From Octopus vulgaris (lineage: Eukaryota), in contig OX597839.1 in the NCBI GenBank assembly GCA_951406725.2, forward strand, positions 11,718,001 to 11,782,000: a stretch of DNA of 64,000 nucleotides, given 5' to 3'. Positions 9,392-61,610 of the stretch are shown in pieces; within the stretch, counting starts at the first letter, position 1, and each line of letters opens with the position of its first letter. The notes beneath the pieces were generated by a model, which had not been told where the DNA came from, searched no databases, and saw nothing but the letters and a program-made list of their open reading frames with translations. A program made the translations under genes and the position numbers.

Positions 9392-9680
9392 TGGCACAAA
9401 TACATAGGTAATAGCAGTCTCTCGAACTCGAGAAAGTCGGTTTTGCATTTCCTTGTTGAACAACCTGCAAATCAGCACAGATTGGTATAAACGGGAGCCC
9501 CCCCCCCCCCAGTAGTCTTAATATAAGCCCTGCTGAGTGAAGAATAAAATTGATAATTTCAATGAGGAAAGGAAACGTCAAAATCATGTTACACTCGTTT
9601 CCATAAACGGACAATATTTTTATTCGATATCTCATACAGTGTCATGCAATTCATACAATATTATGCAACACACGTCATAA

Positions 9681-9848
9681 TATGTGGAAATGTAATAATT
9701 CTATCGTCCATTCACTTCCGCAAGTGTCATACTTGAAGGCATCATCGACCAAATGAATTCATCCCAATATTTATTTGGTCGATGGTGCCTTCAAACATGA
9801 CATCTGCAGAAGTAAATGGGCGATTGAATTATTACAGATTTCCATATA
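9681..9848. repeat. Imperfect palindrome (~75-bp arms), probable decayed MITE
   Basis: TTGAAGGCATCATCGACCAAAT / ATTTGGTCGATGGTGCCTTCAA, plus outer arms. Confidence 0.75.
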
Positions 9849-10004
9849 TCATAGCATATATTACATCGGTGTCGGCGGCTTTATCTCGTATCCAATAATC
9901 TAATTTTTTCCTTACTGAACGATTCCGTTATGTGATAGCCTTCTTGATGACTCTGCAGATCAATTCTTGCCGAGACGAGTCTATAGCAATGTTGGTGGAG
10001 GGCG

Positions 10005-21415: not shown

Positions 21416-21546
21416 CTAGGTGTCTCGGCACCCTTAGTCACATTTAGTGACGACTGACTTTTTCCTTTATGGTATTATATTGCGCCTAAGTGTGACTAAG
21501 GGTGCCGAGACACCGACATTGCTAGAAATAGGAGTGAAATACTCCT

Positions 21547-21592
<46 letters not shown>

Positions 21593-21759
21593 TCCCGCTA
21601 CCATCGCTTCACGGCCGCTATGCTAGAAATAGCCGCTAAATCGCCTTCAATTCTTTAAAATAGACTACATTAGATTATATACATAATCCTTCAACATCTA
21701 GGGCTAAATAGCAGTAGTATTATTCCCTTCATGGGATTGACACATTAAGTTGACAGCAT

Positions 21760-21797
<38 letters not shown>

Positions 21798-22783: not shown

Positions 22784-22823
<40 letters not shown>

Positions 22824-23173
22824 ATTATTTGGTAAGCAGTGCCGAATTTTACAATCTGTAAATAACAATAATAAAGCTTATAAGCGATCACCGTGCATTG
22901 ACTAAGGTAGATAGTCTAATATTGGGGCATATAAGATCTCGACGGAAAAAAAGTAGGGTATGCCGTACGGTGTATGTTCGAGTCCTATGCGTACGGCAAA
23001 CCCTACTTTTATCCGTCGAGGGCTTAGATGTCCCAATACAAGACTATCTACCTTAGTCAATGCACGGTGATCGCTTATAAGCTTTATTATTATTACTATT
23101 ATTTACAGATTGTAAAATTCGGCACTCCTTACCGAATAATCGCATATATATATATATATTATTTTTATATTAT

Positions 23174-27997: not shown

Positions 27998-28057
<60 letters not shown>

Positions 28058-28146
28058 ATCCAAACATGAAATCACAAAGAGAAAACACAACAACGCGAGG
28101 ACGTGGAACAAGTATAGTATTACTGGACGCTCAGGAAAGAAGGAGG

Positions 28147-28181
28147 GTTTAACGTTTCGAGCGGAGCTCTTCATCAGAAAC
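28147..28181 (-). ncRNA. Minimal (dimer-type) hammerhead in a Penelope-LTR-like element (~28055-28292)
   Basis: Minus: GTTT CTGATGA A GAGC TCC GCTC GAAAC GTT AAAC; stem III reduced to palindromic ACGT. Confidence 0.72.
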
Positions 28182-28279
28182 ATAGGAATAGGAAAGATCC
28201 AAAGGGAAGACGGAGGAAAAAAATCGCCAATGGTACACAGGCGGTCACATTTTGAAAAGCTAATTACCACACAGCCACT

Positions 28280-28340
<61 letters not shown>

Positions 28341-28416
28341 AGACGCCATGATAGATTGTTAGCCACTACACACATTTTTCTCTCTCCTTGATTCTCTCTT
28401 TGTTTTTTCTGTGTCC

Positions 28417-28452
28417 CTTTCTGTAGAAGAGCATAGGCTCGAAACGTAAAAG
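28417..28452 (+). ncRNA. Minimal hammerhead variant (CUGUAGA core) in element ~28340-28540
   Basis: CTTT CTGTAGA A GAGC ATAG GCTC GAAAC GTA AAAG; same core in the 54674 copy. Confidence 0.6.
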
Positions 28453-28535
28453 ACTTTGCGTAAAAGAGCGTTATACTAATACATCTATTTGTTTTGTACA
28501 CTACCTGGCTTTGTCTTGTTTTTTTCGTAAACTTT

Positions 28536-28634
<99 letters not shown>

Positions 28635-32774: not shown

Positions 32775-33171
32775 TCTCTTTTACTTGTTTCAGTTATTTG
32801 ACTGCTGCCATGCTGGAGCACCCCTCCCTTTTCGCCGAGCAAATCGACCCCGGGAATGTTTCTTTTTGGAAGTCCAGTACTTATTCTATCGGTCTCTTTT
32901 GCCGAATCGCTAAGTGACGGGGACATAAACAGACCAGCACCGGTTGTCAAGCGATGTTGGGGGGACAAACACAGACACACAAACATACACACACATATAT
33001 ATACATATACACGACAGGATTCTTTGAGTTTCCGTCTACCGAATCCACTCAGATGGCTTTGGTTGGCCCAGGCTATAGTAAAAGACACTTGCCCAAGTTA
33101 CCACGCAGTGGGACGGAACCCGGAACCATGTGGTTGGCAAGCAAGCTAATTTACCACACAACCACTCCTGC
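32775..33171 (-). mobile_element. SINE family A, inverted tail-to-tail with the previous copy
   Basis: Family consensus on the minus strand. Confidence 0.88.
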
Positions 33172-33172
33172 C

Positions 33173-33640
33173 GGTTTATCAACAGTGCAAAAGTGGACAG
33201 CGGAACTTAGAAGAGGAATGAAGAGTGTTGAAGTTTCACCCGTCATCTGGATATCTTGTAACTGGCACCACCGAGGAAAACAGGGATCATGTTCACCACA
33301 TGGTGATGGACGGGCGACTGACTCTAAAGCATGTTCCGTGAGAAAGTTGAGAGTATTCTGCACAATGAATTTGGCATGACGAAGGTTCCTGCTTGGTGGG
33401 TGCCATGTCTTTTGATATCTAATCAAAAGCACACTAGTTTGATCAAATCACGGGAAAATCTGACATTGCTTGAAGCAGATCCAACTGGTTTCCTTGAACT
33501 GGGTTTCTAACCCAGGAAGAGTGTTGGCTTCCTCACTTTGAGCCAGAGACAAAGAGACAATTTATACATTGGAAACACTCCCCTTCATCTGCTCCAAAGA
33601 TGGCCATGGTCGTTTGATCAACAGAGTAGATGATGGCTTC
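33173..33640 (+). pseudogene. Mariner transposase remnant (HTH to start of the DD34D domain)
   Basis: STVQKWTAELRRG, ILHNEFGMTKVPAWWVPCLL (WVPxxL motif), TQEECWLPHFEPETKRQ, with frameshifts and stops. Confidence 0.85.
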
Positions 33641-33820
33641 AAGACATTGTGTGGTTGTATAATGTCAACATAACGTGACGGTCTCGTAAAGGGAATTACA
33701 CCACCGCTATTTAGCCCTAGGAAGCATTGACGCTTCCTGTCAGCTTTGACACATTTCCTGTGTCCTTATATTTGCAAAGGGGCAGCAAGTACCCCCACCA
33801 GCTAGGACTAGCAACCTGAA

Positions 33821-33856
33821 GACATGCATGTTTCTGGGTCTTGCCCGTCATCAGGC
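33821..33856 (-). ncRNA. Hammerhead core lacking an evident stem I
   Basis: Minus: CTGATGA CGGG CAAGA CCCA GAAAC ATGCAT GTC; palindromic stem III. Confidence 0.45.
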
Positions 33857-33965
33857 AAAACCCAGTGTCAGACAAATGTTGCTTTCACTTTTGAAACTCA
33901 TTTACGTTTTAAAATCGATTAATTACTTTTGATAACAATGTGTATCATACGTATTGTAATTAAAG

Positions 33966-34245: not shown

Positions 34246-34408
34246 TTAATACCATATAGATTTCTGGTGCATCTAAGTTAAGTACCGCATTCATGTGAAT
34301 TCATTGGAACTCACTTGAATCTTAATTGCTTTTACTGAAAATAATATATATATATATATATGTATTTGTTTTGCAAGATTTTTGATGTGAAATAGTGTGT
34401 TGAAACAA

Positions 34409-34678
34409 ATATTGTTGTTTTTAGGAATGGTCATTTTGCCAGTTTAGCCAATAAAAACACGGACTATATATTTGGGGTTACTTTGCTTCAGCGTTATTTA
34501 TTTTTTACATTAATCTTAATCTTATTTCGGATGAGGTCACAGGAGTGTGACGAAAGAACTCTGGCCGAAATAAGATAAAGATTAATGTAAAAAATAAATA
34601 ACGATGAAGCAAAGTAACACCAAATATGTAGTGCGTGTGTTTTTATTGGCTAAACTGGCAAAATGACCATTCCTAAAT

Positions 34679-34688
<10 letters not shown>
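34409..34688. mobile_element. Inverted-repeat pair (~120-bp arms) around a truncated hammerhead; Penelope-LTR-like inversion
   Basis: Arms 34409-34530 and 34565-34688; spacer GATGA G GTCAC AGGAGT GTGAC GAAAG AA CTC TGG; flanked by (TA)n. Confidence 0.72.
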
Positions 34689-43198: not shown

Positions 43199-43545
43199 TT
43201 TTAGTCTACAGTCTACCTGGCCATTTACGTTTTAGTCTACAGTTTACCTGGCCATGTACGTTTTAGTCTGCGGTCTACCTAGCCATTTATGTTTTAGCCT
43301 GCAGTTTACCTGGCCATTTACGTTTTAGTCTACGGTCTACCTGGCCATTTACGTTTTAGTCTACAGTTTACCTGGCCATTTACGTTTTAGTCTACAGTTT
43401 ACCTGGCCATTTATGTTTTAGTCTGCAGTCTACCTGGCCATTTACGGTTTAGTCCGCGGTCTACCTAGCCATTTATGTTTTAGTCTACGGTCTACCTGGC
43501 CAATTACGTTTTAGTCTGCAGTCTACTTGGCCAATTACGTTTTAG
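43199..43545 (+). repeat. ~11 copies of a 31-bp tandem repeat TTTTAGTCTACAGTTTACCTGGCCATTTACG
   Basis: Directly visible; no spacers. Confidence 0.95.
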
Positions 43546-51652: not shown

Positions 51653-52419
51653 AGTTCTGCTTTCCAGATTTAAACATAAATTAGAAGCAATAGGGGGTCT
51701 TTGATCCGACCGAGTGAAAAATTAGGCTTTTATAATCACATCAATAGACTTGGCTGTTTTTTCACTGATATCACACAGACTTAGCACCGCAAATATTCCA
51801 CGTAGTTTTCTTTCTCGCTCTCCCTCATTCTCTCTCTTTCTGTTTCTCATTCTCCTTCTTTTCATGCTCTCTCTCTCTCTCACTCTCTCTCTCTGCTTCT
51901 CTTACTCTCTTTTATCACAGTCAGACTCTTGGCTCTTTTAAGGAAAAAAAATATCACTAATTTATAAATTGCCATTTCTCGCTGGATACGCCACATCCTT
52001 TCAAAACAGCGCCGCCTATAATATAGGCGCAGAACGTGGCCTGGAGGTAAGAAATTTGATTCCAAACCGCATGGTTCCAGGTTCAATCCTACCGCGTGGT
52101 ACCTGGCCAAATGTTGGGGTTCGTAATTGGAAAGAGTTCGGAGTTGGTAAGTGTTGGGCTTGGTAATTAGCAGTCCTGCTCATGGGGCTGACTGGTGGCG
52201 GTGATGTTGGTGTAGGCAATACAGCGTAATATATCCGAGTTGTCGGCAGTCACGGACCTGAAATTAGGGTTAAGGTTAGGGTTTGCCGGAAGGGCATACC
52301 TCTGGCAACAGCAATAAGATAAATCGTATTTCTTATTGATGGGTACTGCCGGTTATTGGAGGATATGCAGTGCTGACAGTTGGGGTCACCGGGTGAATAT
52401 GGTGGTGTTCCGTCAACAA

Positions 52420-53270
52420 TAGTCCACTTGATGATGGGTGTTTCGTCTCGGAGGTCACGGAGTCTCCAGAGAAAACGAGACAGGGAAGTACAGTTTTTTT
52501 TCTGTCCTTGTTTCTGAACGAGTACATATGCTGGGAGCAACTTCTCTTGAAGTAATTAGCTGTCATACCCGTATTAGCTATCATATCCGTATAGTGCCTA
52601 GTAATGCTATCGGATGGGGTATACTACGTCCCTTGAGAGGCAGGATCCTTCTAGAGGGCACATGTCAGGGTTTCGGGAGTTGCAGGTTGGGGTTGGGATG
52701 ATGTTGTCTAAGCAGGAGTAGCTCATTTTGACATGAGGATTGAAGAGTTTATAATACTTGTGGCCTCTGGGGAAGTGTTGGTGGAAACGTCTGTTTTTAA
52801 AATGGGGTTTTATCATATAATTTTCCTTTTCCTAATCCTTTTGGGGTGAGGACAGGATGTTTGGACGTTGTCCACATACGTGAGCTTCTCAGTAAATCCG
52901 CTCCTAGTCAAAGCAGTGGGGGCAGCCCTGCTGAAGATCTCTCTATTTGCCGAGAGATTAGATTTCTAATCTCTCGGGGGAATGATTTGTGTTCTTATGG
53001 ATGTATACTGTTTCCTCGTTAGGCTTCCTGTAGGGTAATATTTGCCTTTATCCAGGTTTAAATTTACGTCTAAGAAATCGACCGTAGTCAGGTTGGCGGT
53101 AACCGTTACGGACAGGACGAACTCCTTGAATATTTCATTCAAGTCCTTCCTGAACCTGTCCATGCTGTGGCCGTTCCTATGGCTTGAGATAGTCAGGCCA
53201 TCGTCCCTATTAGAGGACCGACTTATGTGGGTGGGTACGCTTCTTGAGAGTATCCAACGAATTTGAATCA
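52420..53270 (-). pseudogene. Penelope-like element remnant: RT C-terminal half, Cys linker and GIY-YIG endonuclease
   Basis: RDDGL...TVDFLDVNLNL..YYP (RT/thumb); HFPRGHKYYKLFN..VKMSYSCLDN; CNSRNPDMCPLEGSCL..VVY; GMTANYFKR..QHMYSFR..TSLSRFLWRL..IKWTIV; frameshifted. Confidence 0.87.
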
Positions 53271-53277
53271 TACTGTT

Positions 53278-53325
<48 letters not shown>

Positions 53326-54557: not shown

Positions 54558-54673
54558 ATGACATATATATATATATATATAAAGGGAAAGTTTACGAAAA
54601 TAAACAAAAGACGAAGGCAGGTGGTGTACAAATAAACAAATGTATTAGTATAGGGCTCAGGAATAGAAAAAGT

Positions 54674-54709
54674 ATTTTACGTTTCGAGCCTACGCTCTTC
54701 TACAGAAAG
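54674..54709 (-). ncRNA. Minimal hammerhead variant (CUGUAGA core)
   Basis: Minus: CTTT CTGTAGA A GAGC GTAG GCTC GAAAC GTA AAAT; element homologous to 28340-28540. Confidence 0.58.
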
Positions 54710-54800
54710 ATACACAGAAAAAAATTTATATATTGTCACATATACATATGTACATACATTCACACATACACGCTCGAGCACACAGTTAAATATATATATA

Positions 54801-54845
<45 letters not shown>

Positions 54846-54847
<2 letters not shown>

Positions 54848-55299
54848 CAATAATAATTCTCTAAACGAGATATAGACAGTAACTGCTCCATAACTGCCCT
54901 GTCCCTAGCCACATTCAAATGGCTAATGTCCCTTTTGTTATGGAGCAGTTACTGTCTATATCTCGTTTAGAGAATTATTATTGCTGTCGAACAGATTTTC
55001 GAAATCAGTGAATGTATTTACGTGAAAATCTTTATATAAATATCCTGCATGGAGAGTCGTTCATCGAAGGGCGATGCCTACCATACGTTGACGAGAGGCA
55101 AACACCTCGAAACCTGGGTCCGTATGTGGCTTCCGCTTCTTCGGTGGATGATCTCCCTTTGCAGGATAGAGGACGCCGTGATGGTGTCAAGCCTTTCTGG
55201 TGACGTTGATGTTCGCCTGGGGCTAAATGCAACAGTAACACCCCCACCGCCCTGCCCTGTCCCTAGCCACATTCAAATGGCTAATGTCCCTTTTGTTAT
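54846..55299 (+). mobile_element. Retrozyme/Penelope-LTR-like element: 358-bp unit with 48-bp terminal redundancy and 49-bp inverted 5' extension
   Basis: Direct repeat 54894-54941 = 55252-55299; inverted repeat 54846-54894 / 54937-54985; (TA)n on both sides; internal HHR. Confidence 0.82.
55082..55126 (+). ncRNA. Type I hammerhead ribozyme (U at position 3)
   Basis: CATACG TTGACGA GAGG CAAACA CCTC GAAAC CTGG GTC CGTATG; 6-bp stem I, G-C closed stem II, GUC site. Confidence 0.82.
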
Positions 55300-55300
55300 A

Positions 55301-55376
<76 letters not shown>

Positions 55377-57209: not shown

Positions 57210-57252
57210 CCACCTGAAGATTGTCGATCAAGACAAGAAACGATTGTAGTGG
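57210..57252 (+). ncRNA. Type I minimal hammerhead ribozyme
   Basis: CCAC CTGAAGA TTGTC GATCAA GACAA GAAAC GATT GTA GTGG; complete core, all stems pair. Confidence 0.82.
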
Positions 57253-57339: not shown

Positions 57340-57370
<31 letters not shown>

Positions 57371-58108: not shown

Positions 58109-58228
58109 TTATATAAATCTATGTATATATATATATATATCCATGTGTACTTCGTAAACACCAGTCGTTTTTTTTCTCCCTCTTGTTGCCCACTTGGGAT
58201 CTTTCTTTCCTCTCTCTTCTTTCTTTAT

Positions 58229-58263
58229 GTTTCCGACGAAGAGCTCCGCTCGAAACGTCATAC
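58229..58263 (+). ncRNA. Minimal hammerhead (mutated core CCGACGA) in a Penelope-LTR-like element
   Basis: GTTT CCGACGA A GAGC TCC GCTC GAAAC GTC ATAC; same family as 28147. Confidence 0.58.
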
Positions 58264-58353
58264 CTTCCTGCTTCCATCTTTCCTGAACGCCTATTAATAA
58301 TAATACTGTAATTGTTCCACGTGTTGTTGTTTTTTCTGTTTTCCCGTTTGGAT

Positions 58354-58404
<51 letters not shown>

Positions 58405-61568: not shown

Positions 61569-61610
61569 ATCTGATATGCTATTTCGGAATAAAATTCCTT
61601 CTTCAGATAT
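61569..61610 (-). ncRNA. Type I hammerhead ribozyme candidate
   Basis: Minus: ATAT CTGAAGA A GGAAT TTT ATTCC GAAA TA GCA TA TC AGAT; AUC site, one mismatch in stem I. Confidence 0.65.

Follow-up and report, generated by a model that had tools for sequence, protein, structure and literature searches.

A short hammerhead-bearing insertion in Octopus vulgaris with the layout of Penelope-like insertions

What kind of element carries a hammerhead ribozyme, repeats its own end exactly, and sits between two (TA)n runs, and which machinery placed it there? The question is raised by positions 54846-55299 of the window, i.e., of the whole 64-kb stretch of Octopus vulgaris sequence that was analyzed, which is microsatellite-rich eukaryotic DNA. 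An earlier note had regarded the segment as an apparently intact retrozyme-like insertion copied by a Penelope reverse transcriptase (RT). The answer favored here is that it is probably a solo insertion of a short, non-autonomous hammerhead retroelement, which the RT and endonuclease of a Penelope-like element (PLE) mobilize in trans. Mobilization of animal retrozymes by PLEs has been proposed from co-occurrence and pLTR similarity, with the mechanism not worked out (PMC7229834, PMC7761336). At this one locus, retrozyme anatomy is joined to the insertion signature of PLEs; the copy points to a definite start site and a candidate binding domain, which brings the proposal within reach of the in vitro PLE assay already published (PMC11167929).

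Architecture and age of the insertion

The features of the locus are given below, with the strand in parentheses.

54813-54846 (no strand): left (TA)n target run, read from the sequence
54846-54894 (-): inverted 5' arm, the reverse complement of 54937-54985, presumably of snap-back origin
54894-54941 (+): redundant 48-nt copy of the 3' end (0.13 extra unit), a direct repeat
54942-55299 (+): 358-nt unit, 46.9% GC, highly self-paired, without protein homologue
54942-54955 (+): 5' strand of the unit's closing helix in predicted linear and circular folds
55033-55040 (+): TATA-like box, candidate internal promoter, 30 nt before the TCA at 55061-55063
55041-55168 (+): long imperfect rod that extends helix I in predicted folds, with the ribozyme at its tip
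55082-55126 (+): type I hammerhead, from Rfam match, descriptor scan and fold
55172-55224 (+): two hairpins (55172-88 and 55199-217), conserved in a relative at 33.7 kb
55252-55299 (+): 3' tail with a terminal hairpin (55264-69/55278-83) and an 8-nt A/C-rich loop
~55297-55372 (no strand): right (TA)n target run, read from the sequence, with one interruption

The two copies of the 48-nt direct repeat (54894-54941 and 55252-55299) are 100% identical at a spacing of 358 nt, and the 49-nt inverted repeat (54846-54894 versus 54937-54985, with 42 nt separating its arms) is 100% complementary. The inverted repeat overlaps both ends of the left direct repeat, by 1 nt and 5 nt, and the arm's first base and the last three bases of the right repeat can equally be assigned to the (TA)n flanks. 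From 54894 to 55299 there are 406 nt, or 1.134 periods of 358. The repeats, their spacing, the flanks, and the copying of slightly more than one unit are thus all as the earlier note had them.

Within the 64-kb window, blastn gave no second copy of the element, no tandem array was seen, and only one copy spans the junction between the tail and 54942. In the relative at 33.7 kb, the 5' part fails to align with the element, its score being equalled by 674 of 1000 shuffles, and the 358-nt period is therefore left without a second witness. A whole-window Rfam scan returned only microsatellite-driven matches among the 150 of 328 matches listed.

How old is the insertion? The 97 paired positions contain no mismatch, which gives a 95% upper bound of 3.0% divergence (3.3% if 89 positions are counted). 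At the octopus substitution rate quoted in PMC13282606, and assuming no gene conversion, the 3.0-3.3% bound corresponds to 4-9 million years. For the 181 other repeat matches in the window, the median identity is 78.6% and the highest 98.8%; set beside them, the perfect repeats of this locus bear out the claim that the insertion is young.

The ribozyme, the unit, and the neighboring Penelope-like elements

Rfam Hammerhead_1 matches 55082-55126 over the full model with 26.7 bits (E 2e-4 in a 454-nt search), a score below the Rfam gathering score of 34. An independent descriptor scan of the window, which asked for at least 6 pairs in stem I and at least 4 in stem II, found 1 site, and 60 dinucleotide-shuffled versions of the window averaged 0. 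Helix I (55082-87/55121-26) has 6 bp, helix II (55095-98/55105-08) has 4 bp and a 6-nt loop near the Rfam consensus, and helix III has 2 bp and a 4-nt self-complementary loop, while the core at 55088-94 carries U3 and C7. By position, C55120 is the cleavage-site nucleotide, and the cut is predicted directly 3' of it. These helix sizes are those of the canonical metazoan type I hammerhead and not of the minimal form typical of metazoan PLEs, most of whose hammerheads are minimal, with an extra base before helix II (PMC4209133). The hammerhead reported for these positions is present over the full Rfam model; the description of it as near-canonical has to be qualified for the core, where position 3 is a U, G8 is retained, and a U-G pair replaces C3-G8.

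What does this change mean for activity? In the PLE ribozyme of an anole, C3G or G8C alone abolishes cleavage (PMC11167929), natural U3 mostly covaries with A8 (PMC4209133, PMC3088659), and PMC7151607 cites one natural variant that combines U3 with G8 and has an insertion upstream; a measurement of the U3-G8 change alone was not found in the literature. The region 55055-55150 folds with a z of -3.13, and in the predicted ground state the core is paired with the cleavage site and helix III is not formed. Given the U3-G8 wobble and the 2-bp helix III, the ribozyme is probably slow rather than fully active, or in need of a partner. The helix III region is self-complementary and gives an 8-bp self-duplex of -9.8 kcal/mol, so that a dimeric ribozyme fold is possible. 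With its single ribozyme, the locus cannot itself release a monomer circle.

The unit as a whole is strongly folded. The linear fold of 54942-55299 has a z of -4.64 (none of 100 shuffles folds as well) and the circular fold a z of -4.1 (none of 150 as good); the minus strand folds more weakly (z -1.6, with 8 of 150 shuffles as good). An 8-bp helix, 54948-54955/55232-55239, has a pair probability of 0.97 in the circular fold and is reached in 12 of 3000 shuffles and in 0 of 240 slid windows; in the linear fold it may be extended by pairing of 54942-54948 with 55252-55257. Because this closing helix joins the first 14 nt of the unit to its far end, the 5' boundary of the unit coincides with the limit of a folded domain; a 5' truncation at a random point would not be expected to stop there.

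An 83-codon open frame at 55049-55297 (+) spans the ribozyme and is open to the 3' end; on a modelled circle it extends to 106 codons, a length equalled in 104 of 2000 shuffles, i.e., borderline chance. No homologue was found among 1.84 billion proteins (0 matches) or in a word search of near-length proteins, and Pfam and NCBIfam offered only matches of E 0.17. These blanks are weak, since the protein sets also missed a clear PLE fragment; with no homologue in those same sets, the frame was rejected as a gene. Six-frame translation and protein searches of the element gave no RT or GIY-YIG ORF. An exact 22-nt pattern had 0 loci in prokaryotic genomes, and plasmid and phage collections held no match to the element, none of these being expected to hold animal repeats. 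As pLTRs bear a TATA box plus Inr-like motifs (PMC3846280), the TATA-like box and the TCA could possibly act as an internal promoter, a weak reading drawn from the motifs.

The window also contains remnants of PLEs.

52170-53283 (-): decayed PLE, from the RT thumb to the end of the endonuclease, with many frameshifts and stops

Its RT-thumb piece has neighboring Atlas protein clusters in which 29-70% of the members carry PF26215; Pfam and NCBIfam left the neighboring PLE fragments unrecognized. Counted by eye, 30 of 59 residues are identical to Hydra-1_Obim and 28 of 59 to Hydra-1_Ajap, and by its sequence the fragment resembles the Hydra clade. Does the unit share its 3' end with an autonomous PLE? 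The unit does not match the decayed PLE of the window, three element motifs of 12-14 nt had 0 matches in the supplement of PMC8557442, and an autonomous partner with a matching 3' end was found neither in the window nor by the motif search of that supplement. The 3' end of Hydra-1_Obim and the unit have in common, by eye, only one 12-nt word; this word and a 13/14 match to Hydra-2_Amil, also seen by eye, were treated as chance.

Other hammerhead motifs are scattered in the window. A short element with a minimal hammerhead occurs at 28054-28260 (-) and 58140-58356 (+), 72% identical over 143 columns, both copies stopping at the same place before (TA)n. A second family, with a degenerate minimal-hammerhead-like motif, occurs at 28337-28538 (+) and 54581-54715 (-), 82-83% identical and again with the same 3' end before (TA)n, the latter copy lying ~130 nt left of the insertion. 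A hammerhead like the Hydra-clade motifs is present at 57214 (+) in AT-rich sequence, with a (TA)n end near 57345, and hammerhead-core-like motifs without a clear helix I occur at 61606 (-) and 30959 (-).

Could the insertion itself be the 5'-truncated end of a long autonomous PLE, i.e., a solo pLTR with its tail, the 358-nt period being accidental? The RT would then have stopped after 358 nt, restarted on the tail of a second template for 48 nt, and folded back. The literature offers models for this: PLE insertions are mostly partial tandems that are 5'-truncated and include an inverted segment (PMC8557442), solo pLTRs are on record (PMC3846280), and pLTRs of ~200 nt contain a TATA box together with a hammerhead and the beginning of the ORF (PMC11167929, PMC3846280); the 83-codon frame, open from 55049 to the 3' end, would suit it as well. 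However, the ribozyme is canonical in its helix sizes where metazoan PLE hammerheads are mostly minimal, the 5' boundary falls on the closing helix, and a single 12-nt word, by eye, is all that the unit and the 3' end of Hydra-1_Obim have in common; the lack of a homologue for the open frame adds a little, its weight reduced by the PLE fragment that the same sets missed. This explanation is judged unlikely.

Relatives, the 3' terminus, and a possible route of insertion

The solo hammerhead retroelement favored here has two relatives in the window.

33654-33861 (-): diverged relative, nhmmer 14.3 bits, E 3.5e-4
21697-21764 (+): 5'-truncated relative, 3' end only, nhmmer 25.8 bits, E 1.6e-7

The first was found with the element as the nhmmer query, through a match at 33709-33852 (-), the best of 40 reversed or shuffled controls reaching 3.4 bits. 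The second was found with the 33.7 kb copy as the query, a match attained in 0 of 1000 shuffles, and it enters (TA)n at 21765, the very nucleotide at which it ceases to match the 33.7 kb copy. Searching the window with a profile of the three members gave no further copies. Just left of the 21.7 kb relative, at 21423-21515, a short element with inverted ends of ~27 nt lies inside a dispersed repeat.

The 33.7 kb copy and the element are identical at 48 of 73 positions (alignment columns 10-83). The copy has a hammerhead core at 33854, with C at position 3 and a palindromic helix III, and its helix I cannot form; it keeps the 3' domain and the tail. The two hairpins at 55172-55224 are predicted independently in each of these two sequences. 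Taken together, 25 of 26 cells are paired, with 2 pairs changed on both sides and 2 on one side, in a register chosen after a first, misregistered structure. Equal pairing is reached by 65 of 500 column shuffles of the two sequences, and the simulated chance of the covariation is 0.008 with the observed share of transitions and 0.19 under an all-transition null. The compensatory changes read from this alignment are suggestive, and the hairpins may be regarded as a candidate cis signal for the RT.

All three members can be aligned over the terminal hairpin, with one of its four pairs broken in the 21.7 kb copy. Compared by sequence alone, the relatives' tails do not resemble that of the element significantly (184 of 1000 and 498 of 1000 shuffles). 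Both relatives end 10 nt past the terminal hairpin and the element 15-18 nt past it, so that, measured from the conserved hairpin, the three ends lie within 5-8 nt of one another. No (TA)n run follows the 33.7 kb copy; 33171-33650 (+) contains fragmented frames at that point, which we take to resemble a mariner transposase. As Pfam matched 0 of 4 pieces of these frames and leaves that reading unconfirmed, the 3' end of this copy is less certain. The unit junction also has 8 nt in common with sequence at 33.6 kb, a match that was dropped because it sits in unrelated flanking sequence.

How do these ends compare with what is described for PLEs? Their insertions are partial tandems with an inverted 5'-truncated copy and a tail of 30-40 bp (PMC8557442), the inverted junction being ascribed to self-priming (PMC3846280). 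[quoted passage not shown] The insertion shows the same footprint, i.e., a partial tandem with an adjacent inverted 5' segment, and across the three members there is a fixed 3' end near a stem loop, a (TA)n target (the 33.7 kb copy being the one without a following run), and no poly(A). The two minimal-hammerhead-like families of the window likewise have fixed 3' ends in (TA)n, in both copies of each. PLE nicking, together with an internal start that is not set by ribozyme cleavage, would account for the (TA)n target, for the fixed 3' end, and for a ribozyme that lies in the middle of the copy. The attribution to a Penelope RT thus stands as likely, since the layout is the published PLE signature.

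A plausible course of events is the following. The source, probably a tandem array located elsewhere in the genome, would yield RNA in which the end of the 358-nt unit runs on into its start, be it a ribozyme-cut and ligated circle or an uncut tandem transcript. A nick in the (TA)n run, which is the observed target, would be made by a PLE endonuclease. The RT would start internally, at a fixed position 15-18 nt past the terminal hairpin, and not at the ribozyme cut, and would copy one unit and 48 nt more, the length present in the sequence. The 3' end of the cDNA might then fold back over the tail hairpin, prime on a 4-nt match, and slip; the snap-back cDNA would copy 49 nt of its own sequence and then be joined to the (TA)n end on the other side.

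The fold-back step is suggested by microhomology at the junction, where a 7-nt word spans the start of the arm and recurs 11 nt earlier within it (10 of 358 and 265 of 20000 in two nulls). The 3' end of the cDNA is predicted to pair beside the start of the arm, in a weak fold (z -1.15). A snap-back with one slip would explain the junction word; as an alternative, the arm may have been primed from the second target strand.

What was the template? The extra 48 nt need one in which the tail is followed by 54942, i.e., a circle, a tandem transcript, or a second template. Under the preferred reading of a PLE-mobilized solo element, the circle is slightly ahead of the tandem RNA, with the proviso that one junction cannot separate them. 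A fuller version holds that a 358-nt ribozyme circle was copied by a Penelope-type RT from a fixed start, and that 55172-55283 is a cis signal shared by animal retrozymes for the recruitment of that RT; it is offered tentatively, as somewhat less probable than its negation. According to a review, animal retrozymes have no conserved motif that points to their mobilizer (PMC7761336); if the proposal is true, the 55172-55283 domain would be such a motif.

The earlier note had expected that different copies would be circular permutations of one 358-mer. That expectation fails in the window, where all three members end near the same hairpin, and it sits badly with the fixed start of the PLE RT (PMC11167929). 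Fixed 3' ends do not refute a circular template, because the PLE RT starts at fixed internal sites; what a circle predicts is a recurring unit junction with fixed 3' ends and not random permutation. A model in which the RT can start anywhere on the circle of an intact retrozyme, so that copies are randomly permuted, is for the same reasons improbable: its prediction of more than unit length (PMC7229834, PMC7761336) and the stable circular fold (z -4.1) agree with the data, but the shared end of 3 of 3 members, the fixed start in PLE reverse transcription (PMC11167929), and the presence of one ribozyme only, with U3-G8, do not.

Still less credible is an artefact of assembly or library preparation, i.e., a fold-back chimera plus a contig end duplicated at (TA)n. 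Perfect repeats beside microsatellites are error-prone places, and complex PLE insertions have troubled assemblies (PMC8557442), yet the 3' end agrees with the terminus of the family, the arrangement is as reported for PLEs in other animals (PMC3846280), and the 33.7 kb relative has a decayed 14-bp inverted repeat (33865-52/33847-34) at its own 5' limit, where homology stops. Finally, two further readings can be dismissed, one taking the 48-nt repeat for a target-site duplication and the other taking the inverted repeat for the mark of a MITE or microRNA hairpin. The 48-nt repeat is family sequence with homologues in two relatives, and element-derived sequence extends beyond it; the inverted repeat occupies a single end and is not terminal; and the weak Rfam mir-4791 match to the arm hairpin (26 bits versus a gathering score of 100) is of the sort that any long hairpin gives.

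Place among known elements

With which known systems can the solo insertion be compared? The closest are the metazoan non-LTR retrozymes, a class whose repeats range from ~150 to 450 nt with GC below 50% and which in mussels measure ~350-390 nt (PMC7229834). Here the unit has 358 nt and 46.9% GC, helices of canonical size, no protein-coding region, and strong self-pairing; the description as a retrozyme-like unit is well founded in size, GC, and self-pairing (PMC7229834). To these can be added a type I hammerhead of 6, 4, and 2 bp with a tetraloop, as in that class (PMC7229834), the lack of an ORF, LTR, PBS, or PPT, a self-paired predicted circle, and PLE remnants in the same window. In contrast, retrozymes are tandem arrays, while this copy has 1.13 units, one ribozyme, and the U3-G8 core; the inverted 5' arm and fixed tail are also not among the retrozyme features drawn from the cited accounts (PMC7229834, 10.64898/2026.07.22.740005). 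Two hammerheads are a criterion for an active retrozyme, and single units are called monomers or "solo" copies (10.64898/2026.07.22.740005). The insertion has one hammerhead, not a tandem with at least two, and its 3-8 base pair is U3/G8. As the tandem and the core both depart from the definition, the copy is not classed as an active retrozyme, and of the label "apparently intact" the one full period survives, while the single ribozyme and the U3-G8 core speak against it.

The second comparison is with the EN+ PLEs (Penelope/Poseidon, Neptune, Hydra, and Naiad), which share with the insertion the partial tandem, an inverted 5' segment that overlaps the direct copy, a short tail, a TATA-like box, a hammerhead, the (TA)n target, and a 3' end by an A/C-rich stem loop (PMC8557442, PMC3846280, PMC11167929). 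Unlike them, the element has no RT or GIY-YIG gene, its ribozyme is canonical rather than minimal, the outer end of its arm is internal sequence and not the 3' end, and the redundancy is only 48 nt.

Chlamydomonas MRC1, a non-autonomous PLE derivative, is similarly short and non-coding and forms pLTR-like partial tandems, although Chlamys elements, unlike the present one, are mostly without canonical hammerheads (PMC8557442). The schistosome SINE-like hammerhead repeats and the newt satellite have an internal promoter, here a candidate, upstream of a type I hammerhead, and their single copies lose the ability to propagate, as would this one (PMC6765202), a likeness of description. The plant LTR retrozyme, with type III hammerheads in two LTRs, a PBS, a PPT, and a 4-bp target duplication (PMC7229834), is ruled out, the hammerhead being of type I and single and there being no LTR pair.

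The copy belongs to the known class of non-autonomous hammerhead elements, and, as far as its sequence tells, it would behave like the offspring of a non-LTR retrozyme that was moved by a PLE, being itself classed neither as an active retrozyme nor as an autonomous PLE. There is precedent for each of its features, and the copy itself is probably a dead end. In the literature on retrozymes and hammerheads in octopus and on mollusc hammerhead circles, no description of such a family was found (Repbase, Dfam, and subscription journals lay outside the search), and neither "ribozyme" nor "retrozyme" occurs anywhere in the main text of the O. vulgaris repeat paper.

The window offers some further repeats. 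Seven degenerate TTAGGG repeats lie at 687-728, with no chromosome end evident nearby. Long palindromic inserts of MITE-like appearance are present at 34362-34684, 22820-23143, and 9677-9852, the first two between (TA)n runs, and a minisatellite of 31 nt runs for 11.2 copies at 43199-43545.
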